Shown piece by piece: positions 2-37,774 of a DNA stretch of 45,127 bases (position 1 is the stretch's first letter; the number at the start of each line of letters is the position of its first letter). The position numbers and the translations under genes were made by a program. Source of the stretch: Candidatus Bathyarchaeia archaeon (GTDB taxonomy: Archaea; Thermoproteota; Bathyarchaeia; Bathyarchaeales; Bathycorpusculaceae); NCBI GenBank assembly GCA_049512075.1, contig JBEKXL010000019.1, positions 1 to 45,127 of the forward strand. The letters run 5' to 3'. The notes under the pieces were generated by a model, which had not been told where the DNA came from, ran no database searches, and worked only from the letters and a program-made list of their open reading frames with translations.

Positions 2-305
2 GCGCGCTGGCTTGTCCCTAAAATGGTTAAAAATGGTTTTTATTCTTCTTTTGTCTTTTCGAGTTGGATATGGGCTTGTTTTCTGGGCAAATCTTGGCCG
101 CGCGCTAAGATGGCAAATCAACGGGTTCCAACAAATCCTGAAGGAAGTGGAGTTTTTCCATAACACGTTGAGGCTGCACCTAGCCCGTTTGGAACTTCAA
201 GGCACGCAAGAGGGCTAAAAACAGATGCACACCTCAAAACTGCCCCCAAACCCGAAAATAAGAATTATAGCCATTTTACACCAATTTCGGGACAAGGCAG
301 CGCGC
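2..305. mobile_element. MITE-like non-coding element bounded by imperfect ~46-bp terminal inverted repeats starting GCGCGC
   Basis: Left end GCGCGCTGGCTTGTCCCTAAAATGGTTAAAAATGGTTTTTATTCTT (2-47) vs reverse complement of right end GCGCGCTGCCTTGTCCCGAAATTGGTGTAAAATGGCTATAATTCTT (260-305): 38/46 identical by eye. No credible internal ORF; mobility is inferred only. Confidence 0.5.
226..305 (-). repeat. 80-bp GCGCGC-anchored dispersed repeat, copy A
   Basis: Ungapped match of 71/80 nt to 10394-10473. Confidence 0.9.
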
Positions 306-402
306 GCTTGAGCGTCTCACCGATGCAGTCTACAGCACGATACCGTGAACAGTACGCGCTTTCGGATTGTTTACGGGCTGATGGAAATGGAATGCCCAGG
401 TG

Positions 403-643
403 CTATTTACTCTCGAGTATCGACTTCAGGGCTGTCCAATCTTCGAGGCTGAGCACACGTTCAGTGAGCTTGAGGAAGCCTTGGAAAGCTTCAGGGGGCA
501 TGCTTGCCTGGCCCGCCCTAATCATTTCAACTCTTTCGTACAGGTTCATCGCAGGAAGCATCATCTCAAAATTCTCTCTAAGCTCATCGGGCTTTTGACT
601 GGCCATAATCATCTTGAATGTGGCGACCAACTCCTCGTTCGTA
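403..643 (-). pseudogene. 3' remnant of a hemerythrin (HHE)-domain-like protein, truncated at GCGCGC
   Basis: TNEELVATF...MMLPAMNLYERVEMIRAGQASMPPEAF...VLSLEDWTAL resembles the C-terminal tail of HHE proteins. The first ~16 codons of the ORF are read from the repeat element. Confidence 0.55.
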
Positions 644-1120
644 GCGCGCATGCGTGTTCCTAAAATGACTTTATGAAAGACGACCTGCATATATACTGCC
701 TGGGCTGGCTAGTCCGTCTTTGACCATGGTCTGTGCGACCGGTAAAATGACTGGACGTTGCCCGTGAGCTGCTAAAGTAGTGGGTTTCTCGCCCGGATGA
801 GTGATTGCAGCCTAATGCCAGCCTGAAAGAATGGAGGTCGAATGGAGAATCAGGGGAGGTGTGGCAAAAAGCTTAACTCTACTGCTTCGCATTGGATTGT
901 AGGTTGGCATTGGGTCGGCTTGGGGGCGCCAGGTTCGTGCAGCGTCTTTCATGAGTGGTCAAAAATGGTCATAATTCCATTTTGCAGGTTTCTGCCGCGT
1001 TCGAGGAAAACAAGTACCTATGAAGATCAAGGACAGATATGGAGCCCAAAACCCTGCCTAAACCATGAAACCCGGATAAAAACCATTTTAGGCCAATTTA
1101 GGAACAAGCATGCGCGCTAC
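641..1120. mobile_element. Second MITE-like element with ~27-bp terminal inverted repeats
   Basis: GTAGCGCGCATGCGTGTTCCTAAAATG (641-667) vs reverse complement of 1094-1120 GTAGCGCGCATGCTTGTTCCTAAATTG: 25/27. A partial internal copy of the repeat body lies at ~955-996. Confidence 0.5.
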
Positions 1121-1147
1121 TCATCTCGCTATATAGAAATCGGGAAT

Positions 1148-1314
1148 CTATTCATTTATTCGGTCAAAGGTAAACCTTTCAATATGCTTTTTCTTACCAT
1201 CTGATTTTTTGAGGTTCAAAGCCTGAATGAGTTTATCTTGTGCCTGTTTCTCTAAGCCATGTGCCTTCTGTTTCAGTTCCACAGCTTCTTTCTGATACTT
1301 CTCCATTTCTCCGA
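1148..1314 (-). pseudogene. 3' gene remnant (coiled-coil tail, reminiscent of restriction-modification S-subunit C-termini) truncated at (GC)5
   Basis: LGEMEKYQKEAVELKQKAHGLEKQAQDKLIQAL begins directly after GCGCGCGCGC at 1315-1324. Family assignment is tentative. Confidence 0.35.
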
Positions 1315-1422
1315 GCGCGCGCGCTTGATAGAACAGGCCACAAAACATGAGTCTACACTATTCGCAAATGTCGTTACTCAAGGCGACAAAACGAATGGAC
1401 AAACTATAGAGGTGATTGCGAA

Positions 1423-1596
1423 ATGAGAAAAATCTTGGTTTCTCTTCCAGATGGCGTTGTCGATCTGTTAGACAAAGAGGTTGTGGGCAAGGTCGGAGAA
1501 GGCTACTCCGATACTCTCAGAACTATAATTATGAATTGGCTTTCTGAGAAAGGTTATCTCACAAAAGGTGGAAAACATGAAAAAGACGGTTGTTAA
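1423..1596 (+). CDS. Ribbon-helix-helix (CopG/MetJ-like) DNA-binding protein, 57 aa (not in ORF track)
   Basis: Hand translation MRKILVSLPDGVVDLLDKEVVGKVGEGYSDTLRTIIMNWLSEKGYLTKGGKHEKDGC; beta strand KILVSLP followed by two helices; GAGGTGA RBS upstream. Confidence 0.8.
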   Translation: MRKILVSLPDGVVDLLDKEVVGKVGEGYSDTLRTIIMNWLSEKGYLTKGGKHEKDGC

Positions 1597-1726
1597 GCGA
1601 GAACTTGCAGAAGAAATCGACCTATTGGACACCGAACTTTCAAGTCTCGTAGAACTGCTTGAAGAAAAAGGCATAGTAACTCAAGCCGAGTGGGAAAAGC
1701 GAATCAAACAAAGAACAAAAGTGTAA
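1577..1726 (+). CDS. Small helical protein, 49 aa, overlapping the RHH gene (not in ORF track)
   Basis: MKKTVVKRELAEEIDLLDTELSSLVELLEEKGIVTQAEWEKRIKQRTKV; LLEEKGIVTQAEW resembles a SHOCT-like motif; AGGTGG RBS. Confidence 0.75.
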   Translation: MKKTVVKRELAEEIDLLDTELSSLVELLEEKGIVTQAEWEKRIKQRTKV

Positions 1727-1738
1727 GTTTTCAAGAGA

Positions 1739-2308
1739 TCAAACAATAGGTCGTATACCTATCTCCGCCAACTTTTTCTCAAGTTCTTTGGGTTGTGCTG
1801 CGGGAATTAGATTAGTATCGTTCACCATCTTTACGAGTTCAGAATCTCTTGTAATGAAAATATTGCAGTTGTTACCTATCGCCGCATCAAGCTGAAAAGC
1901 GTCACCAACTGAGAAATTGCTCTTCTTCAATAATTGCAAAATCGAGTCCCAACCTTCATTTGTGGGTACCATCAAGGTGATGATGTCGGTATCTACGAAG
2001 GGTTTTAGGAATTTATCTTCAACTTCATTATAAACCTCAAGCAAATCAGCTTCTGACAGCTTTCTTGGATAGCGATGGCGAAGAAAATCATCAAGAGTTT
2101 CACCCTTTTGAACCCTTTTCCATATCCACTTATTCTCTTGCTCTCTATCCATTAATTCCAAAGCTGTGTAGTACGTTGTCCAGCATCGAATCTTCTTACG
2201 CTTTATTGTTTCTAACAATAACATGGAATCATGGTCTCGATTTCGAACATAATCCAATATTACGTTTGTATCAATATAGGGACGAGGCTTCTTTCTTCGT
2301 GGCGTCAT
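1739..2308 (-). CDS. PIN-domain (VapC-like) ribonuclease
   Basis: YIDTNVILD, conserved E, GDAFQL and FITRD PIN motifs. Confidence 0.85.
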   Translation of the reverse strand: MTPRRKKPRPYIDTNVILDYVRNRDHDSMLLLETIKRKKIRCWTTYYTALELMDREQENKWIWKRVQKGETLDDFLRHRYPRKLSEADLLEVYNEVEDKFLKPFVDTDIITLMVPTNEGWDSILQLLKKSNFSVGDAFQLDAAIGNNCNIFITRDSELVKMVNDTNLIPAAQPKELEKKLAEIGIRPIV

Positions 2309-2318
2309 TCTGTATCAC

Positions 2319-2372
2319 TTAGCGTTTCGGCTTATGTTTTCTATACTTCGGCTTCTTCTTTTTGGGTGACAC
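2319..2372 (-). CDS. Putative 17-aa highly basic peptide upstream of the PIN gene
   Basis: GTG start, MSPKKKKPKYRKHKPKR*, GAGG upstream; stop is 10 nt before the PIN start. Confidence 0.35.
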   Translation of the reverse strand: MSPKKKKPKYRKHKPKR

Positions 2373-2467
2373 AGTTTCAGCCTCTTCGCTAGAACCAGTT
2401 ATATCCTACACCTCCTCACTATATAAATTCTCGAAAACTTAGCGCGCGCGCTTGAACCACTAGAAAG

Positions 2468-3025
2468 ATGGATGAAAAGAGCGTGTCACCATCTGTAAAA
2501 AAACGTAAGCGTGGGCGTAAGGTGCCAGAAGGCAGGGTTGTTATTGGAAAGAACGTTCCGTTCCATTGGGGAAAAAGCGAAACAGTGGCATGGGAAGTTC
2601 ATGGCGAAAACATAGGCATGATTGAAAGCTATAAGACAAGGAAAGAAGCCTGCCTAATGTTTCCATACCTCAAGAAAGTAAACACCTATCAGACTCCCAC
2701 AAAAATCTGTCCACTACTCAAGTCCGAAGGAGCAATAATGAATCCCTACGTTGTAGACTGGAACAACTGCTTCGTCCCAAAAGAAGAAGACATGAAAACA
2801 CCTAACAAAATGGTTTGGGCAGTTAAAGGCTGGAGTCAAGAAAAAGGCAGGTGGATAACCTGTGCACACCTGCAAAGCCAAGAGACAAACCCATCTGAAC
2901 TGCGAAAGACAGCAAACAATGACCCAAAAACCATGGCCAAAGCAGACAAACTAAACCTTATGAAATCAGAACTGCCCGAACTGAAATACTGGTTTACCTT
3001 TGAACTTGAAGAATACGAGGAATAG
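2468..3025 (+). CDS. Hypothetical protein (accessory, basic N-terminus)
   Basis: 185-aa ORF coupled to the next ORF; start could be the GTG at 2483. Confidence 0.7.
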   Translation: MDEKSVSPSVKKRKRGRKVPEGRVVIGKNVPFHWGKSETVAWEVHGENIGMIESYKTRKEACLMFPYLKKVNTYQTPTKICPLLKSEGAIMNPYVVDWNNCFVPKEEDMKTPNKMVWAVKGWSQEKGRWITCAHLQSQETNPSELRKTANNDPKTMAKADKLNLMKSELPELKYWFTFELEEYEE

Positions 3026-3027
3026 CT

Positions 3028-3306
3028 ATGAAACCACAACCAAAACGATCACAAGTCAGACTTTCTGAGGAGTTTGTTGGAGATGGTGACAGAGCCTTGC
3101 GGATAAAAGGATGCGAGTTCCCGCTGATATTTCTGTCAAACAGATTCGTAGATTTGGGATGGGATGGGTATCTGATTAGAAACTTGAAAGAATATCAGAA
3201 ATGTCTGTTCAACGATGAATTTACTTCGCTAGCACCAACTTTCAATGTTGAAAGTCTGATGAAAGCAAAAGAAATGTCAAAGAAGTTGCTCACCAAAGAG
3301 ACATAG
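3028..3306 (+). CDS. Hypothetical protein
   Basis: 92-aa ORF 2 nt after the previous stop; GAGGA RBS. Confidence 0.65.
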   Translation: MKPQPKRSQVRLSEEFVGDGDRALRIKGCEFPLIFLSNRFVDLGWDGYLIRNLKEYQKCLFNDEFTSLAPTFNVESLMKAKEMSKKLLTKET

Positions 3307-3599
3307 AAGGAAGAATAGTCACCCTCAATTTCTGATTTTGCGTACAAGCTATGGCTGAACTGAGATTCCTTTTTTGTTTTTCTGTTCCATGCTTTCGACT
3401 ATTGAGCTACCCAGATTTTGCGGAAAAGTAGCAGAGAAGTAGCGGCATTTTTTCAGTCTTATGCTATTTTGGTGATATATGAAAAATCCAAAAATCTAGA
3501 TTGTCCGTTAACTAAGGAGAATGGGAAGTCTCAGGGTCTTTCGGTGAGCATTGTTGCCAACCCCAAATCAAGAATTGTTTAAGAGCATTTATGATTTCA

Positions 3600-3821
3600 C
3601 TATTCCTTGACCATTATGACGTGCACATAGCAATCATATGCGGTCATACAAACGGGTTTATAGCCTTTCAGAGCGAGTTTATTTATTACTTGGGGTAATT
3701 TCGGGAGTTTTCCATAATCCATTGGACTTTCGGACACAATAATGTATCGTTCTGTGACCTCATTTAACCATGAATCGTCTCTTGAGCTATAATCATTGAT
3801 TATGTAATTTCCTTCTGCCAT
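3600..3821 (-). CDS. Small hypothetical protein
   Basis: GAGGTGA RBS before MAEGNY; ends INKLALKGYKPV...HVIMVKE. Confidence 0.65.
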   Translation of the reverse strand: MAEGNYIINDYSSRDDSWLNEVTERYIIVSESPMDYGKLPKLPQVINKLALKGYKPVCMTAYDCYVHVIMVKE

Positions 3822-4448
3822 GTCAATCACCTCTTATCATAACACTTTTTATCCCAGTCGTATGTATGTGCCTTCAAACGAACCCATAAAAGTGAAAACC
3901 TCTTTAACTTCTGTGGTTGCTCCAATTTTTGATATCCAGATAATCTTATAGTTTATGAATCACAGATAAGAATCGAAGGTTTCGTTCCATGACCTGATAT
4001 ACGAAAGAATAGGCGGGGTATGGCTTAGAATTGGTGATAGGTAGAAGGAGCTACTATCATAGGTTCAAGTCAGTTTGTCTAGTTGATTCTAGCGTTTTTC
4101 TGTTCTACGCTTTCAACATATTCTTTTTAAGCCAGTTTGACCGTATTTCTCATTAGAAGAAGTCGGTCATGTGAAGACGGACTTCGGGAGATATCTCCAC
4201 TTTAGACCTTGAGACCTTAGCAAGTTTTCTGACATAGGTGCGATTTTTCATTTAATCTTACGGAGGATTCCCTCTATTCCATGTCTGCTAATGCGCGCCT
4301 AGTCGACATGCTAAAAGCAGTGAGAGGACGGAGCACATCTTACGTCTTGCAAAACTGAGAATGGAACTTTGAACGACCAGTCATCAATGTGACTCTTCAC
4401 CCACACGGAGAAAGTTAATAAGAGAAGAATTCAATTTTGAACGTGAAG

Positions 4449-4646
4449 ATGAAGCGTAGAATGAATAGTCGAACAGTTCGAGAGTTCCTGTCGTTTGCGC
4501 TCATGGCAGGGTTCTTCTTCGTAGTTTTCTACCTTAACATCGGTCTTCAATACAAGATATTCATGGCTGTCTTGGTCTTCGCAATGGTCTTTCTTCTTGG
4601 ATTCGCCGATGAGGCTGTCAAACAAATAGAAAACAGGAAATTCTGA
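4449..4646 (+). CDS. Small two-TM membrane protein
   Basis: Two hydrophobic segments with basic flanks. Confidence 0.7.
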   Translation: MKRRMNSRTVREFLSFALMAGFFFVVFYLNIGLQYKIFMAVLVFAMVFLLGFADEAVKQIENRKF

Positions 4647-4807
4647 AACACGAGCAGACACGGTGGATGATAACGCAGGGCTAGGAGGTTCTGCAATCGC
4701 GCGGTTTAAATTTGCTCATAGGTTTTTAGGCCACTCCACAACTGACATGTTGGCGAGCAGTCTTGTCACTGCGGCAAGCTGTCTCGACTGAAGAGGTGCA
4801 ATTTCAA

Positions 4808-9113: not shown

Positions 9114-9774
9114 TTTAACTTCCTCCAATGTATTTCGATATTCATGGTTTTCTGATGATGATAGATAAATAACTTTCCATTAATCGGTTTTGGCGTAAAA
9201 CTTGAGTTAGGCTTGTTTTGTTGAATAGTGTTATGTTTGGTGATGAAGCTGCGAAAGAGAAGTGCCTACAGGACTTTTTGTGAACGTTTTAGGCAGTTTG
9301 GGTGGTGGCGCGCGCGCAAAACACGCCAGTCGGAGCCTTCCTCACGTTCTGGGGATGAACTGCTCAAGAAAAACCTTCCAAACCCCCTTTTTTGTATACT
9401 GCCCGAAAGTATTGTCGCTCTTTTTTCTTGATATTGTACCGCAGAAAATCAATCTGCAACATCCTTTCACACAGGGAGTTTGTCTCCAACCATGTCTCTG
9501 AGCAAGCTATAATAGACCTAGCGCGCACACCTAAGGATTTGACAAAACTAACTTTCTTCTGTTTTATGGTTCTCTATTCCATTTCTCTAATACTTAGTGA
9601 CTCAATGATATTGAAGTTTTGAGAATACCCAAACCAAAATACGTTTAAGTATTATTTGATCCCATCTCTATTATTGAAGCTTGTCGCGCACGCAACAGAT
9701 TGCGCAGAGCCTTTTCTCACGTTTTAACGCGCAGTATATATTGCAGGACAACAACTCCATTCGGGGGCTAGAGG

Positions 9775-10350
9775 ATGATTCTGGCGTTCATCATACCCTT
9801 AATTCTTTTCGCAATTCTTCTTTCTGTGAAAAAGAAACTCCTGAGAAGGCACTGGTACATGCTATTTTCGCTCGGTTTTGTTCTTACGTTTCTTGTTTCA
9901 TTCGTTTCTGTTTGGAGTGCTTGGAACCCGTACGAGCGGAGCGACTCTCTAAATGAGTATTGGGAGACGAAGTACTCAGGAGCATCGAGTCTATCGTACC
10001 CGCTTGAGCTGAGTGTCTATGTCGCTCCCCTGCCCGTCCGAAACTTCACCGCAATGCAAAACATATCCTTTGATGTTTCCGTTGCAAATCAAAAGGTGCT
10101 GGAAACAAATGGCACGTTAACCTTCGATATAGGAACCGCGCTAATAGGAAACCCTGCACCTCTAAGTTATCAATTGGAACCTCCTTTCTCCTCTGATGCA
10201 GTCTACTTTTTCGAGTTCCTGCTTTTCCTATTCACCCTGTTCAATATGATAGGGTTTGCACTGGGACTGATTCTGGCGTACGTTGTTTCAAGATACTTGC
10301 AACAAAGAAGCACCTTGCAGCAAACGACAGATCGCTCGATACCCCTCTAG
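9775..10350 (+). CDS. Hypothetical membrane protein (3 TM, extracellular loop with N-glycosylation sequons)
   Basis: Hydrophobic N- and C-terminal segments; NFT, NIS and NGT sequons. Confidence 0.7.
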   Translation: MILAFIIPLILFAILLSVKKKLLRRHWYMLFSLGFVLTFLVSFVSVWSAWNPYERSDSLNEYWETKYSGASSLSYPLELSVYVAPLPVRNFTAMQNISFDVSVANQKVLETNGTLTFDIGTALIGNPAPLSYQLEPPFSSDAVYFFEFLLFLFTLFNMIGFALGLILAYVVSRYLQQRSTLQQTTDRSIPL

Positions 10351-10393
10351 CACGCGAAGGTGCCGTCTCAAAGATAGAATCGGTCGCTATAAA

Positions 10394-10473
10394 GCGCGCT
10401 GGCTTGTCCCGGAATTGGTTTAAAGTGGTTATTATCCTTATTTTCGGATTTGGGGGCAGTTTTGAGGTCTGCA
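10394..10473 (+). repeat. 80-bp GCGCGC-anchored dispersed repeat, copy B
   Basis: 71/80 identical to the reverse complement of 226-305; intergenic, upstream of lhr. Confidence 0.9.
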
Positions 10474-10611
10474 GTGCCAGCGGACTTGGTTCCAAGTTCC
10501 ACCGACTTCCTTCGCCCTGTCATTGTCCATGCTTCAGAGATGGTTTCCAAAACGCTTTTACCTAGGGTTTCAAGCTTATTCCAACTGGTTTCAAGGTAGG
10601 TTAGGCGAATA

Positions 10612-20757: not shown

Positions 20758-20830
20758 CTTTTCTCCTTGACTAGAGATTCAAAACATGGTTCACTCTGAG
20801 CTTTTTAAGTTTTGGCAGAATCGGCGCGCG

Positions 20831-21844
20831 CTAGACATCTCTTTTTGGCAGGGCTACTGCAGATATTCCTAGAGTTTTGCGGATTTCTTTTGCTAGGGTT
20901 TCGCCGTTGCTGACCCGTGAGTTGTCGGTTATGACGTGTTCAGGTTTTGAACGCCTCACGTATTCAAGCAAACCGTTGAAGTCTGAGTGGTCGCTGAGGG
21001 CTACCACGTACTCTTTGTTGTCGGTCTGGCGGATTGCTGAATCGAATTCCCATCCACTTACGAGAACACGGAAATTGTTCAGACCGACGTTGCTCCTGGA
21101 TTCCATGTGATAGAAGGCTACGCACGGTGCGTTGCTGTCTAGCAGTTTTTCCGTGTCTGGCTCTGTGGACAGCATCAGCCGTCCTATGTGCATGCCGTGT
21201 TTTTCGCAGACCTTTGAGACCTGAAAAACCTTCTCAGGCGCAAGGAAAGGAACGTTCAAGTCGGCCTCGTGTAGGATCTGCATGACCTCCTGAAGCTTCC
21301 CGTGATAACCGAAAACGTAGACCGTGCCTTGTTCCAGCCCCCTTTCAACTAGGGAAACTAGTGAGGCCTTGACGTTTGTTCCGAAAGAGCGTTTGCAGGC
21401 TGGGCTTCCATACGTGGCTTCGATGACAAGAACGTCTGATTCAAGGACGGGAGTGTCGTCGATTCTGAAGTCCCCTGTGAAGACTATCCGTTTTCCCTCA
21501 AAATCTTCAACCAGCACTTGAGCCGCTCCTAGAATGTGGTCGGCCTTGAAAAATGTTATCCGTTCTCCATCATACCGTATGGTTTGGCCGTAGTCAAGGG
21601 TTTCTACCAAGCCACCCAACAGAAAAAGCGGGCTCCGCATGACATCGATCATGTCTTTCGTGGCTTTCGTCATCAAGACCTTCTTGCACGCTCTCAAGCT
21701 CTGCCTCAATCCCACCATGTGGTCAGCGTGAGCATGAGTGACAACTCGGAGGGGTTTGGACTCCTCAAAAGCGTCACACGCGACATTCTTGCCGAGAAGG
21801 ACAGCACCGCGATCTGTTACGGTAGCTCTTGAGGACAAAGCCAT
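20831..21844 (-). CDS. MBL-fold (beta-CASP-like) nuclease
   Basis: THAHADH, HILGAAQ, TGDF, IEATYG, LSDHSDF; TAATG overlap with the upstream gene. Confidence 0.85.
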   Translation of the reverse strand: MALSSRATVTDRGAVLLGKNVACDAFEESKPLRVVTHAHADHMVGLRQSLRACKKVLMTKATKDMIDVMRSPLFLLGGLVETLDYGQTIRYDGERITFFKADHILGAAQVLVEDFEGKRIVFTGDFRIDDTPVLESDVLVIEATYGSPACKRSFGTNVKASLVSLVERGLEQGTVYVFGYHGKLQEVMQILHEADLNVPFLAPEKVFQVSKVCEKHGMHIGRLMLSTEPDTEKLLDSNAPCVAFYHMESRSNVGLNNFRVLVSGWEFDSAIRQTDNKEYVVALSDHSDFNGLLEYVRRSKPEHVITDNSRVSNGETLAKEIRKTLGISAVALPKRDV

Positions 21845-22260
21845 TACCACCCGTGTTTCTGCGTTATCCTCGGGGCTAGCCACTCAACGAGTTCCCGGGG
21901 GTCTCTACACTCTATCTTGACCTTTATGGGTCCTAGGGGGGATTCTGCGTTTTCTTTGGAGAAGGAAATGTGTCCGACGTATGCCACCTGCTTGTTCAAG
22001 CAGAACCTGATGGCCTTCTTCTCCATGCCTTCGAGAAAGACGGCTCGGGCAGCGCCGCGAATGTGTTCCCGGCGAAGAAGATCACACAGTCTAGTGAGTG
22101 ATTCTTTTCCTTTACCTTCCCCTACCAGAAGGCTTGCCTTATGAAGAGGTTTCACCTGCAGGTTTACGTCTCCGAAGATGTTCCTGACGGCCTCTTCCAC
22201 TTTTTCTTGTGATTCTGTAGAGTTGATTTCGGTTTCCACGTGAAGGCTTATTTCTTCCAT
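21844..22260 (-). CDS. UPF0201/DUF54 RNA-binding domain protein
   Basis: TES.EKV..AV.NIF, LNKQVAYVG.ISF, SPLGPI. Confidence 0.88.
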   Translation of the reverse strand: MEEISLHVETEINSTESQEKVEEAVRNIFGDVNLQVKPLHKASLLVGEGKGKESLTRLCDLLRREHIRGAARAVFLEGMEKKAIRFCLNKQVAYVGHISFSKENAESPLGPIKVKIECRDPRELVEWLAPRITQKHGW

Positions 22261-26179: not shown

Positions 26180-26260
26180 GTTGATCCTCCGAATGGACGT
26201 TTCGGATTAGTTTTAAGAGATAGTGAAGATAAGTTGTTTATACGCGTGGTGGTGTCGTCG

Positions 26261-26800: not shown

Positions 26801-27098
26801 TTTTCGGAATTTGCATTTTCTGTTTTCGCTTGCGGAAAAGCGTAAGCTCATCTTTCTGGCCAGCGGAAGAGTTGCCCTCACATAGCGCGCGCCTTCTACC
26901 TTGGGACTGAGAAAACGCTTTAGCTTTAGGAATACCTTCAAAAGTTGCCAAGGAAGGCAGAATTGTTGAATTTCAAGAACTCAGCATCTTCTTGGATGAA
27001 GCCAATGTCTCCGATAACGAATAGGTTATTGGTGGTTGGACCATAGAACTTTGTACCTATAAACTTTAAAAGGTCAAAGCTTGCATATTATAATTGAA

Positions 27099-28748: not shown

Positions 28749-29207
28749 GTGAAATGGATCTTCGATCTGCAGCCCATGGTCACATCGACCTTCGATCTAG
28801 TGCTCTCGGCCCCAGAACATGCGCGCGCGCATGGTGGTATGCTCGCATTTCCTAACATGCCAAGATTGTTCGATTTGTGGTCCAAGTATGGTCAACGAGT
28901 AAAAGCTACGGGAGAAGATCGCTACATTGGCAGACAACTCTTCTCGATATTTGCTCAGGCAGGTTTTAGTTCGATTGACATCCATCCTTTCCCAATAAGC
29001 GGAACGCAGCAAAATCCAGAAGCTTTTAAGATGCTTGTAGGAGTTCCTGTTCAGATTCTGGAGCGTGACAAAGGTGCCATGATCAATGAGGGCATAGCCA
29101 AGGCAGAGGATTTCAGAGAAATGCTGCATGAATTCAAATCAGTGCTAAGCCATCCAGGCGCCTTCGCCATGGGATTAAGCTTCCTTGCAATAGGAAAGAA
29201 TCTCTGA
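28749..29207 (+). pseudogene. Truncated class I SAM methyltransferase (C-terminal half), disrupted at (GC)5
   Basis: TFDLV remnant, then GCGCGCGCGC at 28821-28830, then HGG..FP...DRYIGRQL..IF.QAGF; no motif I glycine-rich loop. Confidence 0.65.
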
Positions 29208-29413: not shown

Positions 29414-30529
29414 ATGTGGACGTCGACGGATGCCGTTTATGAGCAACTTGCGAAGGCCTTGGATGGACTGCCAAATGGGTTTCCAAGAACGCCTTCCAGC
29501 GTTGAGATACGAGTTCTGAAGAAGATTTTCTCACCTGAGGAAGCGAAGCTGGCAGGGCAGCTAAGCGGGTCTATGGAACCGGTTGGCGCTATAGCTAGTC
29601 GCGTCGGACTTTCTCCAGAAGAAACGAGGGAAAAGTTGGTGGGGATGGCTAAGCGTGGACTTGCGTGGCATCATGAAGAAGACGGGAAGTTGTTTTTCAG
29701 GCTGGCGCCTTTTGTCGTCGGGATTTACGAGGCGCAGCTAGAAAGCATGGATCACGAACTAGCCCACCTGGTCGAGGAATACTTGGCAAACGGCGGGGCA
29801 GCCGGAATCATGAAGCCTCAACCAGCCATACACCGAGTCATCCCTGCACATAAAGCCGTGAAGTCGGAGTGGATACTACCCTACGACGACGTCAAAGCCA
29901 TACTCCTCAAGTCTAAAACATTCGGTCTACGTGACTGCGTCTGTCGAAAACAACAGGATCTAATCGGCCGCAAGTGCACTTTTCCGCTTAGAACCTGCCT
30001 CAATTTCTCCTCACTCGAAAGCCCTCCGAACGGGTACACAATTTCGAGAGAAGAAGCACTAGATTTTCTTGACAAAGCTGAGGAAATGGGCCTTGTTCAC
30101 ACGGTCAGCAACGTGATGAAAGGAATAGGCTATGTCTGCAACTGCTGCGGTTGCTGCTGCGGAATACTCAGAGGAATCAACGAGTGGGGCATAGAAAACT
30201 CTGTGGCCCATGCAAACTACTATGCCGCCATCGACCCCGACGAATGCGTAGGATGCGGAACATGTAGAAAAAGATGCCAAGTGCACGCCATCTCCGAAAA
30301 AGACGGAATATCAGTCGTAGACACGAAAAGGTGCATCGGCTGCGGACTGTGCGCCACGGGGTGCCCAAACGGAGCAGCAGAACTCAAACGAAAACCTGAA
30401 AACGAAATCGTCAATCCTCCACGAGACTTCGCCACATGGGAACACGAACGCATGCACAAACGAGGCCTAAGCAGACAATCTGAACCCAGCACCAGCTCTA
30501 AACAAAAGGGAAAGCCTGCTTCTCTATGA
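29414..30529 (+). CDS. 4Fe-4S dicluster protein with N-terminal winged-helix-like domain
   Basis: CVCR, CNCCGCCC and two CxxCxxCxxxC ferredoxin motifs. Confidence 0.9.
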   Translation: MWTSTDAVYEQLAKALDGLPNGFPRTPSSVEIRVLKKIFSPEEAKLAGQLSGSMEPVGAIASRVGLSPEETREKLVGMAKRGLAWHHEEDGKLFFRLAPFVVGIYEAQLESMDHELAHLVEEYLANGGAAGIMKPQPAIHRVIPAHKAVKSEWILPYDDVKAILLKSKTFGLRDCVCRKQQDLIGRKCTFPLRTCLNFSSLESPPNGYTISREEALDFLDKAEEMGLVHTVSNVMKGIGYVCNCCGCCCGILRGINEWGIENSVAHANYYAAIDPDECVGCGTCRKRCQVHAISEKDGISVVDTKRCIGCGLCATGCPNGAAELKRKPENEIVNPPRDFATWEHERMHKRGLSRQSEPSTSSKQKGKPASL

Positions 30530-31312: not shown

Positions 31313-31412
31313 TTCTTTTCACACCAAACACAGCTATCATGCAGATCCTATTCTATAGGTTTTCCCTCGACTTGATGCACGTGCCTTGCCTCCCATTCTC
31401 CGATATTCAGAA

Positions 31413-31505
31413 GCGCGTATGGTTAAATCGGCTAAAAATGGTTTTACAGCTAAAACTTGACGCAAAAGGCGAATCAGTTTAACCGTTTTAGACAGAAAGC
31501 GCGTC
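31413..31505. repeat. Degenerate short inverted pair of the GCGCGC-anchored repeat
   Basis: GCGCGTATGGTTAAATCGGCTAAAAATGGTTTT on the left; reverse complement ACGCGCTTTCTGTCTAAAACGGTTAAACTG on the right. Confidence 0.5.
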
Positions 31506-31622
31506 GAGAGGCCCAAACCACAATTCCAACACGTGCTAAATCATATCTAGTCTAGAACGATGAAGAACCTGGTTTTGAAGCTGAGCCAGCGTGAGTTCTC
31601 CTAATCACCTTTCGGTATTGTG

Positions 31623-32021
31623 CTAAAGCCCATCAATTCTTTCGGCATCGATGTAGTAACCGCCGCGCCCGCCCTCGACCCCTGGTACCCCGCTTCTGAC
31701 AACCCCAAAAACCCTCACGCTCACAGAATCAAAGACATCCGAACCATTTGCCGTTCCATCGCGGCCGTTCCAACGCACTCCGATAGTTACGTTAGAGCTG
31801 AGTTCGAAGTTCCATAAGATATCATAGCCGATAAATGGACCAGTGAGGTTGCCTTCAACCACGACTTCCCTGTTCACCCACGCAACGGGATTAAGCAGGA
31901 TTTGGTCTATCGAGACTCTCTGTTGGGCGGGAGTGAAAACGACGAGTCCAAAAAAGGCCGCAACGGCGCTTATGGCCAAAACGGTGCAAACAATCACCAA
32001 GACCACTGCTTTCTTTCTCAT
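31623..32021 (-). CDS. Membrane-anchored hypothetical protein (OB-fold-like)
   Basis: N-terminal TM; SIDQIL.NP..W....V.VEG; V.VFG.V; YYIDAE.I; GGAGG RBS. Confidence 0.75.
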   Translation of the reverse strand: MRKKAVVLVIVCTVLAISAVAAFFGLVVFTPAQQRVSIDQILLNPVAWVNREVVVEGNLTGPFIGYDILWNFELSSNVTIGVRWNGRDGTANGSDVFDSVSVRVFGVVRSGVPGVEGGRGGYYIDAERIDGL

Positions 32022-32343
32022 GCTCCTCCCCAAGTACATTCCAGATTGAACTCACATTTAAGACTTTACTTCATTCTTCTTGTCCATATTAGCATACGTG
32101 TGCGTGAAAGGGGCATTATCCGAAGCGCGCGCTATTTGGTGATGCCTTTCTAAGATTCTTGCCAGCATCAGAACTCGTACGCATGACCCCGCAACGGTCC
32201 TGCAACATTCTCCAAAATAGAGACTTGCAAAAGCTCAATCAAAAGACTTTCGTTCGCTATTCAGTCCGCGAGCGCGGTACAGATATTAACTTTGACTACA
32301 TTAGTCTGGGCTATACTAGCCTCTATTGGGAAGCCTTCGAGGT

Positions 32344-34895: not shown

Positions 34896-35570
34896 ATGGA
34901 GTTGTTTAAAGTGCCGTTTATACCCTTCACAAGAAACTTCGCTGACAACAGCACAGAGGCAGGATTTCAGTTCACGTTCTTCTGCGACGTCTGCTCTGAC
35001 GGATACAAAACAAATTTTGTCGAGTCAAAAACCTACAAGAAAGCAGGACTCTTGCGTGGCTTGGGCAGAGCCGCATCCCTAGGCTCTTCAGTCTTGGGCC
35101 GAAGCGGAGGATACGAAGCCGAGAGCGGAGCTGACATCATCGCCGAACGGTTTCAAGGCATGTCCCCAGCTTGGCACAAGGAGCACGAAGAAGCCTTCAA
35201 GCTGGCCCAAAACGAAGCCATGGGGCACTTCCACAAATGTCCCAAATGCCAAAAATACGTTGACGACACATGCTGGAACGACGAAAGCGGACTCTGCATA
35301 GAAGACGCCCCGAGAGCCGCTTCCGAAATAGCGGCTGCAAGAGCTACCCAGATGAAAGAGCAAATATGGAAAAAGGCAGAAGAAACCCAAATATTCACCG
35401 GCGAAATCAAACCCACACAAACCATATGCCCCCAATGCGGAAAACCAGCAGGAGAAGGCAAGTTCTGCACAAATTGCGGAGCCCCACTCGCAATGATAAA
35501 ATGCTCAAGATGCGGAGCACAAAACGCGGCAGGCACCAAATTCTGCGCAGAATGCGGAAACAAACTCTAG
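34896..35570 (+). CDS. Zinc-ribbon domain protein (C-terminal double zinc ribbon)
   Basis: D.ST..GFQF.F.CD.C, CPKC, CPQC, CTNC, CSRC, CAEC. Confidence 0.88.
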   Translation: MELFKVPFIPFTRNFADNSTEAGFQFTFFCDVCSDGYKTNFVESKTYKKAGLLRGLGRAASLGSSVLGRSGGYEAESGADIIAERFQGMSPAWHKEHEEAFKLAQNEAMGHFHKCPKCQKYVDDTCWNDESGLCIEDAPRAASEIAAARATQMKEQIWKKAEETQIFTGEIKPTQTICPQCGKPAGEGKFCTNCGAPLAMIKCSRCGAQNAAGTKFCAECGNKL

Positions 35571-35631
35571 ACCAAACCACCAGATAGGATACGTTTTTCA
35601 ACAATAAAACAGAAGCCAGAAAGAGATAAAG

Positions 35632-36978
35632 TTGGAAAACAGCAACGAAGAAGAAGAAGAAGACAAAACTGTAATCGAATGCCAGATGAGTTATGCGCTT
35701 CTCGACGAGAACGGTAAACAGGTTACCACAGGCGATTGTAATGGAGCGATAAACAAAGAATATCTCACCCTGTATCCAAAGTTCGGTGACATTCTACCTT
35801 TCCACCTGAGAGAGATAAGCCTGATCGAAGCAGAAAACTACCAAATCACGTTACCGATGTTCTCAAAAGAGAAACTGACCCTGTTCGATCTAGGCCACTG
35901 CTACGAAGACTTCCACAGAGTTCTCTCAGACCTCAGAAACGAGGTAATTATCAAGGACTTGCTCATGAACGAAACCGTCCGAAAACCTGATGTCAACATG
36001 GAATTCACCTGCACAGACGAAAAAGGAAACGAGAAGCAAAAAGGGCCAGCGAAAACTCGCCTGTACGAGACGGGCATGGTAATAATACCTGAGAAAGGCG
36101 AGTTTCTACGAGTACCCTACAGCGACGTCACAGGCGTTTCGGAGGAAAACTACACCATCAAAGTGGGGACAGAACAAGGAGAACAGTTCCTCTTCGAGAA
36201 AATGGGGTCCGAGTTCGGTCCCTTCCTCAAGCAATTCTCAGACGTCTACAACGAACTCCAAACCAGAGCAGTCTCCTCACTCAAGGCGCTCTATCCACCC
36301 ATAGACTCCGTTTCGCTCAGGAGAGTCTCTGCAATCATGAGGGAGGGAAAGGCCGCTAAGCGGGCTGACATAGAAGCCATCAATTCAAGATTGTGGCAAG
36401 AACTGGAGAAGAAAATAACCTCAGTCGGCCTAAACGACCCATACGCTTTTCTGAAGGAATTAGGTCGACAAGAGGAGATAGCCATAGGGTTCAAACGAGG
36501 CCTGATGGGCGACCTGACGGGCGAATACATCTGGTTTTTGGTACCGATTTACGGCACGGTCGAGAAGGGTTACGGAAACGCTATCGCCATGGAGGCGACA
36601 GAAGCAACTGGCGAAGAGAGCACCGGAAAAGCCACGTACTTTTTCAGAATGGTCAGCAGAAAAGACTTTCCGACTTCAAAAACCCCTGAACAGCTCGACG
36701 GCGAGGTAGACAAGCTCATCAAGACGATAAACAGGTGCATGCTCGACATAAACTTCCGAAGAGAACCCATTTACCTCCCAGAAGAAAGGCTTGATGAAGC
36801 CGACTACGTCAAATACAAAATCGCCTCACAGAGAATTCCATCCTTACAGATTCTAAGGAACCTGTACATTGGAAGAGTGATACACGCGTCGCCGGAACAG
36901 TGGAAAAACGACACTATGGAACTGCTTAGGTTCAACGTCGCAACCCTAGATGACTCGACCAAATGGAAAAGACAATGA
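35632..36978 (+). CDS. Conserved hypothetical protein with two predicted PH-like beta-sandwich repeats
   Basis: 448 aa; repeated pattern LPFHLREISLIE..NYQI and VPYSDVTGVSEENYTI; LDINFRREPIYL motif; PH fold is inferred. Confidence 0.75.
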   Translation: MENSNEEEEEDKTVIECQMSYALLDENGKQVTTGDCNGAINKEYLTLYPKFGDILPFHLREISLIEAENYQITLPMFSKEKLTLFDLGHCYEDFHRVLSDLRNEVIIKDLLMNETVRKPDVNMEFTCTDEKGNEKQKGPAKTRLYETGMVIIPEKGEFLRVPYSDVTGVSEENYTIKVGTEQGEQFLFEKMGSEFGPFLKQFSDVYNELQTRAVSSLKALYPPIDSVSLRRVSAIMREGKAAKRADIEAINSRLWQELEKKITSVGLNDPYAFLKELGRQEEIAIGFKRGLMGDLTGEYIWFLVPIYGTVEKGYGNAIAMEATEATGEESTGKATYFFRMVSRKDFPTSKTPEQLDGEVDKLIKTINRCMLDINFRREPIYLPEERLDEADYVKYKIASQRIPSLQILRNLYIGRVIHASPEQWKNDTMELLRFNVATLDDSTKWKRQ

Positions 36979-37152
36979 GAAGACCCTCCTCAACTCGCGT
37001 GAAAACGCCTCAGGGTTTCCTACAATCTGTATGCACTGCGCCTCTTGCGTGCTATCGTATGACTCTCACGACGAGGAATCAGCCTATTTGATCTTGCGAT
37101 AGAAGGCAAGTGTTAACAGGAACAGAGAATGACTGAATTTTGGAGATGGACT

Positions 37153-37626
37153 TTGGCGAAGAAGAAGACTTGGTGTGAGAAACTTCAAGACAGCAAAGAC
37201 CTGCCAAGAGTCGAGAAAATTACTGAGAGGATGAGCAAGAAATGGGGAACAGGCACGGTGGTCATTCCAGCACCCATAGAAGTTGATGAGTTAATGAGAA
37301 GAGTGCCCGAGGGAAAATTGACTACAATAAACCACATTCGAGAAGCCCTGGCCAAGAAACACGAGGCCACAATCGGCTGTCCTATCACCACTGGCATTTT
37401 CGCTTCGATCGCAGCCCACGCAGCAGAAGAACAGAAACAGAAAGGACGAAACATCATTACTCCCTACTGGCGCACTCTCAAAGTCGGCGGTGTCATAAAC
37501 GAAAAATATCCTGGCGGCACAGAAGAACAGGAGAAACTCCTAACAAGAGAAGGGCACAAAGTGGTGCAAAAGGGTAAGAAGTACGTCGTGGTCGAATACG
37601 AGAAGTCGTTGACAAGGCTCTCCTAG
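37153..37626 (+). CDS. MGMT/ATL-family DNA-binding protein lacking the PCHR active cysteine
   Basis: VPEGKLTT, CPITTGIF, TPYWR, KYPGG...Q..LL..EGH. Confidence 0.85.
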   Translation: MAKKKTWCEKLQDSKDLPRVEKITERMSKKWGTGTVVIPAPIEVDELMRRVPEGKLTTINHIREALAKKHEATIGCPITTGIFASIAAHAAEEQKQKGRNIITPYWRTLKVGGVINEKYPGGTEEQEKLLTREGHKVVQKGKKYVVVEYEKSLTRLS

Positions 37627-37774
37627 CGTTTGCCTTCGTGCGCGCGCGCTGCCTACGATAAAAGACTATCTTCGATGCGCCCATTCTAGTTTATTGTAAA
37701 AGAACGTGCGTGCGCATCAGTAAAATGCTTTTTATGCTATTGCATCACATAAGCTAAGGGTGAGGTGGAGGATT

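Follow-up and report, generated by a model that had tools for sequence, protein, structure and literature searches.

Short alternating G/C tracts at rearrangement junctions in a genus of Bathyarchaeia and their possible origin from transposon ends

Results

Alternating G/C runs and gene fragments in the window

The window, i.e. the entire stretch of 45,127 nucleotides analysed here (Candidatus Bathyarchaeia archaeon, contig JBEKXL010000019.1; genome G000), contains 26 alternating G/C runs of at least 6 nt. All nine (GC)4-5 tracts described in a preceding sequence-only reading (300, 1315, 2442, 9308, 20824, 26885, 28821, 32125 and 37640) and all ten GCGCGC hexamers listed there are present, and, as claimed, long ORFs contain the runs at 12426, 19656 and 40864. 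Four CGCGCG-type runs (4698, 23182, 33813, 40233) were absent from that list. The long tracts had all been placed outside intact genes, which holds for seven of nine with respect to ORF calls; tract 1315 is located within an ORF of 66 amino acids and tract 28821 within a chimeric ORF, the only homologous part of which begins 3 nt past the tract.

A MITE copy at 2..307 has 292 bp between GCGCGC (2-7) and GCGCGCGC (300-307), with the inverted ends TGGCTTGTCCCTAAAATGG and (reverse complement) TGCCTTGTCCCGAAATTGG; 21 and 13 self-BLAST repeats, respectively, start or end at its two tracts. Another copy (644..1117; 462 bp between two GCGCGC hexamers; ends ATGCGTGTTCCTAAA and, reverse-complemented, ATGCTTGTTCCTAAA) adjoins a truncated hemerythrin-like gene. 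The remaining 3' fragment (403..645, minus strand) corresponds to residues 145-224 of 224-amino-acid PF01814 proteins, and homology starts exactly at the hexamer GCGCGC 644-649, in agreement with the proposed break of an HHE-like tail at 644. The missing N-terminal part was absent from the ORF beyond the MITE (1148-1348). A further MITE left end (GCGCGC ATGTGTGTTCCTAAA; 44903..45127) runs into the contig end.

Two solo (GC)5 tracts (1315..1324 and 2442..2451) flank a 1.1-kb block which contains a PIN-domain gene (1739-2308, minus strand) and had no match in the examined stretches of G002 and G004. The coiled-coil tail thought to be broken at 1315 was not confirmed, and the 66-amino-acid ORF had no Pfam match. 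The possible gene tail from 2451 onwards was not upheld either: the ATG at 2468, 16 nt downstream of the tract, is preceded by a stop codon, and there is therefore no continuing frame.

The (GC)5 tract at 28821..28830 marks the break of a SAM-dependent methyltransferase gene that had also been suspected. The 5'-truncated gene (28833..29207, plus strand) covers residues 151-272 of about 274. An intact gene is found in metagenome contig L159, in which the breakpoint is tract-less and the downstream DNA identical; the ancestral sequence at the breakpoint, GATG/ATGGTGG (break at the slash), is without a GC run. The identical junction is present in metagenome contig L160. The window and the X5 strain are colinear as far as 28821 and once more beyond it, starting at 28831, with matches on the two sides falling on different X5 contigs; this strain retains the long allele, and the junction is very recent. 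In an X5 contig, a MITE end lies beside a copy of a 46-nt stretch resembling window 30212-30257, and the same motif occurs just upstream of the intact methyltransferase gene in L159.

Of the three claimed frame breaks, homology thus stops at the tract in two (644 and 28821); 1315 had no Pfam homologue to compare. Homology also stops at a tract at 182 of 714 non-MITE repeat boundaries, and gene fragments of cas1 and of TBP paralogues likewise terminate at bare tracts.

Elsewhere in the window, a 1.29-kb insertion specific to G000 (9186..10474) comprises tracts 9308-9317, 9521-9526 and 10394-10399, ORF 9775-10350 and a partial MITE end (10394-10474). At this site G002 has 70 nt and G004 147 nt, the short forms starting alike as judged by eye. 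The solo (GC)4 tract 20824..20831 replaces 1,111 nt of G002, including a 193-amino-acid ORF, and 303 nt of G004; its final C contributes to the stop codon of the minus-strand gene 20831-21883, and a 10,550-nt contig of run X5 spans it. The solo (GC)4 tract 26885..26892 is located downstream of gene 26102-26800; homology ends at 26790 for G002 and at 26810 for G004. Relatives have tracts of their own 0 nt (X3 and X4 contigs) and 12 nt (G004) after the end of that gene. The variable block 31446..32133 (ORF 31623-32039, minus strand), whose right edge is the (GC)4 tract 32125-32132, is represented by 186 nt including a MITE end in G002 and by 232 other letters in the X5 strain. Finally, the (GC)5 tract 37640..37649, 13 nt past the stop of gene 37129-37626, is decayed but present in G002 (GCGCGCG-GC-GCC), and the G004 alignment is broken around it (37616-38253).

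Genome-wide distribution of the tracts

G000 contains 575 alternating G/C runs of 8-10 nt and only six longer ones. Runs of 6, 7, 8, 9 and 10 nt number 669, 195, 284, 186 and 105, followed by three of 11, two of 12 and one of 13 nt; for comparison, there are 71 AG runs of 8 nt and five of 10 nt. Run lengths in G002 likewise stop at 10 (53, 28 and 20 runs of 8, 9 and 10 nt, one each of 11 and 15 nt). The predicted intergenic enrichment was borne out: 460 of the 575 runs lie outside ORF calls, and GCGCGCGC was observed 518 times in intergenic DNA, for which an order-1 Markov model predicts 5.8 occurrences and an order-2 model 24, intergenic here meaning uncovered by our own crude ORF set, which misses some real genes (e.g. 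18564-19547 and 26102-26800). Within ORFs, 119 occurrences were observed versus 13-24 expected. The tract excess in G000 is far beyond chance. It is limited to the genus, being present in five of five genomes (one of them assembled in 8 contigs) as against 0-9 hits each in 26 other genomes.

A functional motif under selection in intergenic DNA, be it a site for a regulator or chromatin protein, a terminator or an insulator, would suit the palindromic sequence, the 460 of 575 intergenic locations and the mildly elevated frequency within 20 nt after stop codons. This explanation is nevertheless highly improbable. Convergent, divergent and tandem spacers have much the same tract density (1.08, 0.76 and 0.99 per kb), no fixed distance to gene starts or stops was found in G000 spacers, lengths range from 6 to 10 nt with odd values included, and the 26 genomes of sister genera and families show no enrichment. 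For the most part it is already refuted, because positions are not conserved: genomes of 95% identity do not keep each other's tracts, and positions differ between species.

That the tracts are assembly or library artefacts (chimeric joins or linker sequence) has a negligible probability. Contigs frequently terminate in MITE copies, and of 1445 runs, 52 are found no more than 300 nt from a contig end, a zone making up 1.9% of the genome. Against this explanation, the signature is common to the five genomes of the genus, including the one in 8 contigs; tracts shared with G002 decay by point mutation; the junction at 28821 recurs identically in L160; and, as the proposed check of junction-spanning sequence required, contigs from other samples cross 20824, 26885, 28821 and 32125. 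In addition, a k-mer assembler would not be misled by a run of just 10 nt.

Tracts at seams between related genomes

Tracts reach 4.32/kb at distances of up to 15 nt from the ends of G000/G002 alignments; genome-specific DNA has 0.38/kb and the interior of alignments 0.05/kb. Indel and synteny breaks relative to the 95%-identical genome cluster at tracts, as had been proposed. Of the 575 G000 tracts, 100 are at a repeat boundary, and a repeat extends across just two. The tract is often adjoined by a few variable nucleotides ('ata', 'cattg', 'aggtatta'). According to the junction table, 19 of the 45 G000/G002 junctions are tract-less at every edge.

Four junctions could be polarised by another genome or contig (window 20824, window 28821, C16:27811 and window 9186-10474). 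At all four the intact or ancestral-type allele is tract-less, and these junctions are therefore not static sites. In the first three the longer form has no tract at either breakpoint, and only the short allele carries one. Among 10 aligned G000 tracts of at least 8 nt, two are identical in G002, five substituted and three partly gapped; tracts in aligned DNA decay like neutral sequence.

These alleles also bear on the idea that Z-DNA- or cruciform-prone (GC)n tracts are pre-existing fragile sites or recombination hot spots which provoke breaks beside them. At C4:14722, C4:42265, C21:34240 and C16:32220 both genomes retain the same tract with different flanking DNA on at least one side, the length stop at 10 could reflect instability of longer runs, and alternating CG beside deletion end points is a known hot spot (Freund 1989 and Wang 2006, as cited in PMC13174585). 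Such hot spots would require the tract to be there beforehand, whereas here the tract comes with the rearrangement in the three cases in which only the short allele has it. Moreover, a break within the tract followed by resection should erase it, and the origin of about 575 tracts in a single genus is left unexplained. We therefore regard this mechanism as improbable.

Transposable elements with GCGCGC ends and candidate repair enzymes

Genomes of the genus harbor an IS5/IS1182-like insertion sequence of about 1.1 kb with one DDE transposase, which scores 86 bits and thus below the NCBIfam IS1182 cut-off of 270 bits. All inverted ends of this IS and of several MITE families have GCGCGC as their invariant first bases, then 6 variable ones and GTYSC-TAAAT; the flanking runs measure 6/6 nt in 27 of 35 complete copies. 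In other Bathyarchaeia MAGs, most of 59 recovered IS left ends read GCGCGC followed by TGGCTTGTCCC. In G002, the allele without the C39 IS is also devoid of GCGCGC at its left junction, so the hexamer moves with the IS. It is very unlikely that GCGCGC is the terminus by chance. The transposase was found in five of five genomes of the genus and in one of 26 others, and the tract excess is distributed likewise. Of the three mechanisms offered by the sequence-only reading, a transposase with a GCGCGC core is thereby supported.

The base outward of solo tracts is T at 390 of 552 ends, compared with about 35% expected from our own estimate of intergenic base composition, and at 55 of 70 MITE outer flanks (counted from the flank table); outward TA occurs at 157 of 552 and 37 of 70, respectively. 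Solo tracts and IS/MITEs have a common A...T flank bias. Solo tracts are not nearer to extant IS/MITE ends than random intergenic positions (41 of 569, or 7.2%, versus 6.7% within 500 nt), and tract number is out of step with such ends (69 tracts and 6 ends in G003; 3 tracts and 14 ends in G032). No orthologous pair of MITE and bare tract with both flanks conserved was found among the genomes compared. A 285-bp module without IS-like inverted ends is bordered by bare GCGCGCGC on both sides in five dispersed copies. Five other Bathyarchaeia genomes with IS and Ku have AGCGCGCGCT counts of 0, 3, 4, 16 and 3 (control counts 1, 0, 0, 14 and 3).

A complete Ku/LigD end-joining operon is located at C16:5124-8191 (Pol, Lig and PE labels assigned by eye). 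Ku/LigD also occurs in other Bathyarchaeia genomes, and Ku had no match in G001 or G003, the assemblies of which are 77% and 93% complete, respectively. RVT_1 was found in none of 31 genomes; a PolX palm had no match in G000 and one sub-threshold match in G003.

Discussion

The tracts are genuine, specific to the genus, located at rearrangement junctions, newly written in derived alleles and unconserved, and the resident IS and MITEs end in GCGCGC. The association with junctions that had been claimed for recombination or repair scars is supported, each check suggested in the sequence-only reading having come out in its favour. We infer, with a probability of roughly 0.55, that the tracts are junction scars derived from transposon-end sequence. 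IS or MITE ends would be cut during excision, during abortive or alternative transposition, or during transposase-initiated loss or capture of neighbouring DNA, and on resealing of the broken chromosome the self-complementary GC termini would be fused. Two hexamers joined with an overlap of 2-6 nt would yield 10, 8 or 6 nt but never 12, in agreement with a mode at 8 and a sharp limit of 10 nt. Afterwards the scar would be functionless and mutate away. Since breaks would recur at such ends, one tract flank would often remain conserved and the other undergo exchange, deletion or truncation.

An origin from transposon ends is favoured by (i) the shared GCGCGC termini, the hexamer moving with the IS and the common flank bias; (ii) the parallel distribution of transposase and tract excess; (iii) the density at seams, the tracts in derived alleles and their lack of conservation; (iv) the length stop at 10 in G002 and the Ku/LigD operon; and (v) the 46-nt motif, beside a MITE end in X5 and upstream of the L159 methyltransferase gene. 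Against it speak the five genomes without tract excess, in which IS plus Ku are evidently insufficient, tract numbers that do not scale with element ends, solo tracts that are no nearer to such ends than random positions, the missing MITE/tract allele pair, the bare-tract 285-bp module and the cas1 and TBP-paralogue fragments, as well as the missing Ku in G001 and G003 and the 19 of 45 tract-less junctions. Moreover, even cores extended by chance at their flanks would give fewer runs of 9 nt than the 186 observed and more of 11 nt than the 3 observed, so the fusion arithmetic is incomplete.

Several of these observations would suit a repair activity independent of the IS, in which a genus-specific enzyme (a polymerase, terminal transferase, ligase accessory factor or nuclease) closes double-strand breaks of any kind with a short, length-capped alternating G/C filler, and the IS ends in GCGCGC for unrelated reasons. 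The strictly genus-specific excess alongside far more widespread IS and Ku, the many tracts and few IS ends in G003, de novo tracts as in the methyltransferase gene, modules and gene fragments bounded by bare tracts, the absence of spatial linkage to extant elements and the variable nucleotides beside tracts are all in line with it. A precedent is DRT3, described as producing strictly alternating dinucleotide DNA (PMC13174585). We nonetheless consider it rather unlikely. A resident transposon ending in the same hexamer would be a very improbable coincidence, solo tracts have the A...T/TA bias of MITE outer flanks, and no candidate enzyme emerged from RVT_1, PolX palm and Ku/LigD, the last not being genus-specific. 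Moreover, with 19 of 45 junctions tract-less, GC writing is not a general joining route.

Scars left by transposon ends have parallels. Cut-and-paste transposons of the Tc1/mariner, hAT and PIF/Harbinger groups leave excision footprints, i.e. duplicated target and/or terminal transposon bases at the former element site. As in these systems, functionless decaying scars outnumber living copies, and the TA flank bias matches insertion sites; in contrast, the scar here is a uniform palindrome, (GC)3-5, with a hard stop at 10 nt, and where it occurs, flanking DNA has usually been lost or replaced over tens to thousands of bases. Genome-scale footprints of this kind for archaeal IS elements were not found in the literature searched. 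Bacterial Ku/LigD and eukaryotic TdT/Pol mu leave short, heterogeneous filler or N-nucleotides at end-joining junctions. Here, too, joint bases are new to both parents and a Ku-LigD operon is present, but the palindrome is fixed and alternating, and Ku does not track tracts across genomes. Yeast mitochondrial GC clusters, HIP1 and REP are 8-bp fixed words or structured units of 30-50 bp, often positionally conserved. They share with the tracts the character of lineage-specific GC-rich palindromes in AT-richer spacers, at deletion or recombination end points; the word found here differs in being 6-10 nt long, unconserved and tied to an IS terminus. IS1272 of Staphylococcus aureus (IS1182 family) is described as undergoing 'inverted-repeat-replacing' transposition without target duplication, in which a 22-30-bp stem-loop target is replaced, no solo scars being reported for it (PMC5678879). 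Transposase superfamily, insertion without target duplication, replacement of target DNA and palindromic joints are common to both systems, whereas the palindrome in the present genus is the terminus of the element itself, and solo tracts prevail.

Whether the system counts as undescribed, as had been suggested, depends on which mechanism writes the solo tracts. If they are transposon-end scars, the principle is already known and the form alone is new. As the tracts most likely come from GCGCGC transposon ends, the hundreds present in the peat archaeon studied here and in its nearest relatives would constitute a readable record of genome rearrangement.

Length, sequence and distribution of the G/C tracts

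The genome assembly to which the window belongs (as contig C19) comprises 2.73 Mb in 86 contigs and is designated G000. All (GC)4-5 tracts and GCGCGC hexamers that the sequence-only reading had listed in the window were found in place, and alternating G/C runs of at least 6 nt number 26 there. In the whole genome, 669 such runs are 6 nt long, 195 are 7 nt, 284 are 8 nt, 186 are 9 nt and 105 are 10 nt; longer runs comprise three of 11 nt, two of 12 nt and one of 13 nt. All other dinucleotide repeats drop approximately three- to fourfold per extra base (AG runs, for example, 71 at 8 nt and 5 at 10 nt), and compared with them the G/C runs show a hump at 8–10 nt and a hard stop past 10 nt. The cap at 10 nt was seen again in a 0.44-Mb sample of G002, a genome of the same genus (53, 28 and 20 runs of 8, 9 and 10 nt, one of 11 nt and one of 15 nt).

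The tract core in G000 is GCGCGCGC in 249 copies versus CGCGCGCG in 34. Among intergenic GC-type tracts, 390 of 552 ends are followed outward by T, 89 by A and 73 by C; past this first base conservation is absent and the information content is near 0. Pairs of neighbouring runs at most 12 nt apart, as expected of short double-tract footprints, are rare (15 of 1383). When coding DNA was defined with our own crude ORF caller (2,748 ORFs covering 81% of the genome, some genes being missed), 460 of the 575 tracts of 8–10 nt fell outside ORFs, 8 across an ORF edge and 107 inside. The intergenic enrichment that had been claimed for the window thus extends to the genome: intergenic GCGCGCGC was counted 518 times as against 5.8 expected from an order-1 and 24 from an order-2 Markov model, models of higher order being contaminated by the tracts themselves. 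Within ORFs, 119 copies were observed and 13–24 expected.

The 10-mer AGCGCGCGCT is present in 115 copies in G000 and in 29, 87, 69 and 98 copies in the four other genomes of the genus, with 2–6 copies of a reversed-pattern control in same-genus genomes. The 26 genomes of other genera from the same family and order contain 0–9 copies each.

We consider the view that the tracts are purely regulatory motifs to be weak. Their density is similar in convergent, tandem and divergent spacers (1.08, 0.99 and 0.76 per kb, respectively), and the tracts of G000 keep no sharply defined distance from start or stop codons, which together rule out a promoter or terminator element. Ten G000 tracts of at least 8 nt lie inside G000/G002 alignments; G002 is identical at two, substituted at five and partly gapped at three. 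Among eight such tracts of G002, three are identical in G000, two substituted, two partly gapped and one is a pure 11-nt insertion. Decay is thus about that expected of neutral sequence at 5% divergence, and the positional conservation of a REP- or HIP1-like motif was not seen between G000 and G002 (2 of 10 identical, no favoured spacer type or distance).

Tracts at seams between relatives and within the genome

G002 is approximately 95% and G004, a further genome of the genus, approximately 82% identical to G000. Homology between the window and G002 breaks at 9185/10475, 15523/15738, 20821/20834, 26790, 31445/32134 and 43000/43267, and two of these breaks match tracts (20824–20831 and 32125–32132) to the base. 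At 15523–15738, 214 nt in G000 stand opposite 2.0 kb in G002 and 2.6 kb in G004; since the G000 junction has no GC tract, not all indels are marked.

By our own count, 26 of the 45 colinear G000/G002 junctions in 0.44 Mb of G002 have a run of at least 6 nt at one edge or more, and 19 have none. In a recurrent form of junction, one genome carries a few bases plus the tract and the other 90–4,800 unrelated bases with tract-less edges. The tract-only allele is that of G000 at C16:27811, C16:47148, C21:34240, C19:20824, C23:9400 and C4:33693 (contig:position), and that of G002 at two junctions. Close to alignment ends (up to 15 nt away; 13 tracts in 3,010 bases), runs of at least 8 nt in G000 reach a density of 4.32 per kb, as compared with 0.38 per kb in genome-specific DNA, 0.05 per kb in the aligned interior and at most 0.31 per kb when intergenic aligned bases alone are considered.

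Repeat boundaries within G000 likewise concentrate at the outer edge of tracts. A repeat boundary is present at 100 of the 575 tracts; repeats run across two others, and the remaining 473 are not bordered by any repeat. The last figure, together with the lack of flank information past the first base, rules out a flanking repeat common to all tracts. Repeats of at least 200 bp other than miniature elements (MITEs, see below) have 714 boundaries, of which 134 adjoin a tract in just one of the copies and 48 do so in both. One 285-bp module consists of the 3' end of a dockerin-type gene and downstream DNA with a repeated ATTACATCTGACATTACAA motif, and lacks IS-like ends. Its copies at C13:8732-9018, C26:22422-22708, C3:152456-152738, C6:79187-79465 and C8:6408-6694 carry GCGCGCGC at both sides and have unrelated outer flanks, while further copies are cut short at various points with a tract at every cut. 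Some modules are thus bounded by tracts on both sides, as would be expected of integron-like cassettes; many alleles instead oppose a tract-only form to a tract-less long form.

Several individual genes were also recorded. Two cas1-like copies were recognized by eye at C1:349156-349804 and C2:64828-65476; the latter is 5'-truncated and begins directly after (GC)5, and its C1 paralogue reads on. A TATA-box-binding-protein-like gene of about 200 aa, also assigned by eye, has five paralogues (C21:1673-2363, C32:6582-7270, C4:130998-131676, C27:11817-12437 and C1:104869-105480), at least one of which has a repeat boundary ending at a GCGCGCGC tract. The 503-aa product of window 27179–28690 carries a dockerin type I domain at its C terminus (E=2.2e-10) and matches CARDB weakly; the 3' end of the gene is part of a multi-copy family, as three differing contig continuations depart at 28690 in each of three sequencing runs of other samples (X3, X4 and X5). 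The block at 1424–2308, between the (GC)5 tracts at 1315 and 2442, holds a PIN-domain gene (1739–2308, minus strand; Pfam E=2.6e-6) and two small ORFs on the opposite strand, and is possibly toxin-antitoxin-like.

Direction of change at single junctions

The cleanest case for the direction of change is the tract at 28821, where the sequence-only reading had proposed a truncated methyltransferase. Window 28833–29207 indeed corresponds to residues 151–272 of 274-aa SAM methyltransferases, and the preceding 28 ORF residues match nothing. A metagenome contig (L159) encodes the intact methyltransferase. This contig reads GATG/ATGGTGG at the breakpoint (slash), without a GC run, and downstream of the junction it matches the window at all aligned bases (approximately 270 nt); a second contig (L160) has the same allele as the window. 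At 20824, G000 has GCGCGCGC and the flanking gene is shortened by one residue; the alleles of G002 (1,111 nt) and G004 (303 nt) are longer, tract-less and alike by eye in their first bases. At C16:27811, G000 has 'ata' plus the tract, and both relatives have long tract-less spacers. At the methyltransferase joint as compared with L159, and at 20824 and C16:27811 as compared with G002 and G004, the tract bases are absent from both parental sequences, as filler inserted during end joining would be.

These junctions bear on the possibility that the tracts are merely fragile sites, i.e. Z-DNA or other non-B sequences at which DNA breaks. In PMC13174585, (CG)n is cited as a hot spot of deletions, and some other seams have the tract in both alleles; in the three cases 20824, C16:27811 and 28821, however, it is missing from the longer comparison allele, and we regard a pure fragile-site explanation as weak.

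DNA was also gained together with tracts. Window 9186–10474 represents 1.29 kb acquired in G000, with three tracts and a partial MITE end, where G002 and G004 have short forms whose starts are alike by eye. The second truncation that had been proposed, that of a hemerythrin (HHE) gene at 644, was borne out as well: window 403–645 (minus strand) corresponds to residues 145–224 of 224, and homology begins at the GCGCGC at 644. This hexamer is a MITE end, and the ORF at 1148–1348 beyond the MITE does not match the missing hemerythrin part.

Assembly chimerism, raised by the sequence-only reading as a possible objection, was addressed with population data from other samples, which consist of Logan contigs only, i.e. 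assembled sequence in which read-level heteroplasmy is not visible. An X5 contig (10,550 nt, 141 differences) crosses 20824 and 26885, and X3 contigs cross 26885 (6,975 nt, zero differences), 28821 (1,167 nt) and 32125 (3,021 nt). Because contigs from other samples span them, the joints are not assembly chimeras, and a pure artefact is a weak explanation of the tracts. The X5 strain is colinear with the window up to 28821 on one contig and resumes at 28831 on another; in place of window 31402–32133 it has a different sequence of 232 nt, which extends to the 32125 tract. For other relatives, contigs depart from the window at 26800 directly into CGCGCGCGGG or CGCGTGCGGG.

A family of insertion sequences and MITEs ending in GCGCGC

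GCGCGC followed by TGSCTTGTCCCKAAAWTGG or a variant occurs at 52 sites in G000. Complete elements number 35 (119–1,319 bp), four of which are IS-sized (900–1,319 bp), and in 27 the flanking runs are 6 nt on either side. Inverted repeats are clear, and the outer flank is TA at the left end of 17 elements, at the right end of 20 and at both ends of 10. Elements of 119–490 bp are non-coding, multi-copy and have inverted ends as in the autonomous IS, and are hence MITEs. Four sub-families share the layout GCGCGC-N6-GTYSC-TAAAT, in which N6 is variable and the hexamer invariant. By pattern, 107 IS/MITE ends were recognized in G000, and MITE copies are present in G001, G002 and G004 of the same genus. 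The window contains MITE copies at 2–307 and 644–1117 and partial ends at 10394 and 44903.

An intact autonomous IS on contig C39 encodes a transposase of 335 aa (P0001). Domains detected in the C32 copy are DDE_Tnp_1 (PF01609, E=6e-17) and an N-terminal DUF772 (PF05598, E=5.6e-6). Since the best NCBIfam matches of P0001 score below cut-off (IS1182, 86 bits vs 270; IS5_4, 69.4 bits vs 140), the element is a superfamily relative of IS5/IS1182 and not a member of a curated family. The transposase is present in all five genomes of the genus and in one of 26 others. Related IS were located at 80 loci, nearly all in Bathyarchaeia MAGs, and most of 59 left ends read GCGCGC/TGGCTTGTCCC. Two loci (L145 and L151; 62–64% protein identity) are on contigs binned as Dehalococcoidia and Patescibacteria, reflecting either mis-binning or transfer to bacteria; L151 has GCGCGC at both ends. 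A domesticated transposase resident at a fixed locus is ruled out, as the IS flanks differ in the four genus genomes carrying it and G002 has no full copy.

The hexamer might be a 6-bp duplication of abundant (GC)n targets. This is disfavoured, as 27 of the 35 copies have 6-nt runs at both ends though solo tracts are mostly 8–10 nt long, and as the allele of G002, which lacks the C39 IS, has aaaac/gacgataa at the left junction. As GCGCGC is missing from that allele, the hexamer arrives with the element. A clean empty site was not found. According to PMC5678879, IS1272 replaces palindromic targets without target duplication.

Other transposase-like genes recognized by eye are an IS110-like ORF of 323 aa (C9, approximately 66.5–69.1 kb) and a 359-aa DDE/zinc-finger ORF in three copies (C12:49828-50905, C14:54920-55997 and C2:146701-147694); no GC tract was found at the repeat boundaries of the copy inspected (C12).

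Transposon ends as a probable source of solo tracts

Systems with which the tracts may be compared are the footprints of Tc1/mariner and hAT elements, TdT N-nucleotides, yeast mitochondrial GC clusters, HIP1 and REP. Full-text literature searches yielded no paper on such tracts in archaea. The best-supported account is a causal link between tracts and transposon ends, the tracts being junction scars derived from them; we put its probability at slightly above one half (about 0.55). It is favoured because the IS termini are exactly the repeat unit of the tracts, which is very unlikely to be coincidence, and because the flank bias is shared. As expected of an excision footprint, the tract is derivable from the element termini, and the A...T/TA bias is common to solo tracts and element flanks. 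Two GCGCGC hexamers fused via a self-complementary overlap of 2–6 nt would give 10, 8 or 6 nt, but never 12; this arithmetic matches the mode and the cap and leaves many 9-nt runs unexplained.

Other findings argue against a simple by-product of transposition, among them the 285-bp module without IS-like ends and the five genomes outside the genus that have IS and Ku but no tract excess (see below). Allele pairs of a MITE and a bare tract were found neither at three MITE loci in four relatives nor at the 45 G000/G002 junctions (approximately 0.44 Mb of G002), and the three loci had no clean MITE empty sites in relatives. IS/MITE ends number 30 in G001, 41 in G002, 6 in G003, 52 in G004 and 14 in G032, a genome outside the genus, and do not scale with tract counts; G003 has 69 tracts versus 6 recognized ends. 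Solo tracts are no closer to extant ends than chance predicts (41 of 569, vs 6.7% of random intergenic positions).

End joining and a possible GC-writing activity

An end-joining operon at C16:5124-8191 of G000 encodes a LigD-like polymerase domain of 280 aa, a Ku protein of 270 aa and a ligase-phosphoesterase fusion of 467 aa, Ku being assigned by Pfam and the other two by eye from motifs. It is a bacterial-type operon in an archaeon and apparently complete. Ku was also detected in G002 and G004 and, among other Bathyarchaeia, in G010 and G031-G035, whereas the searches of G001 (77% complete) and G003 (93% complete) yielded none. Ku/LigD does not track the tracts, as Ku occurs in G010 and G031-G035 without an excess and was not found in G001 and G003, which have one. 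G031-G035 all possess both IS and Ku, and their AGCGCGCGCT counts (0, 3, 4, 16 and 3) lack an excess over controls (1, 0, 0, 14 and 3), which rules out that IS plus Ku is sufficient.

Alternatively, a joining activity, independent of the IS or derived from it, might itself write the GC run. The restriction to the genus, the tract-rich G003 and the modules bounded by bare tracts speak in its favour; we nevertheless think it unlikely. A reverse transcriptase as the writer was rejected because RVT_1 was found in none of 31 genomes, and PolX because the genus gave no above-cut-off match to the PolX palm. According to PMC13174585, DRT3 enzymes make strictly alternating dinucleotide DNA.

A broader proposal is put forward tentatively, and we hold it to be doubtful: a DNA-joining activity of the genus may close broken chromosomes with an alternating G/C palindrome of capped length (at most 10 nt), either because the GCGCGC-ended transposase behaves in a new way or through a genus-specific enzyme. 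It would act on ordinary DNA ends, beyond excision sites, and delete, capture and shuffle modules the size of genes, often enough for this to be seen between strains with 99–100% identity around the junction.

Implications

If the tracts are scars, every tract records one past event of breakage and joining as a dated and readable mark, and together they would map the sites and frequency of rearrangement across the genome of an uncultured archaeon. The data point to a single transposon family, or to an activity connected with it, as the source of much of the truncation of genes, gain and loss of cassettes and decay of synteny between species at 95% identity. To our knowledge, little is known about the repair of transposon-induced breaks in archaea, and the transposase, the MITEs and the Ku-LigD operon offer a concrete archaeal system for its study. 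For annotation, tracts signal pseudogene boundaries and likely misannotated chimeric ORFs such as that at window 28749–29207. If instead a dedicated enzyme writes the GC run, repair joints would be the site of a novel type of sequence-specific DNA synthesis.
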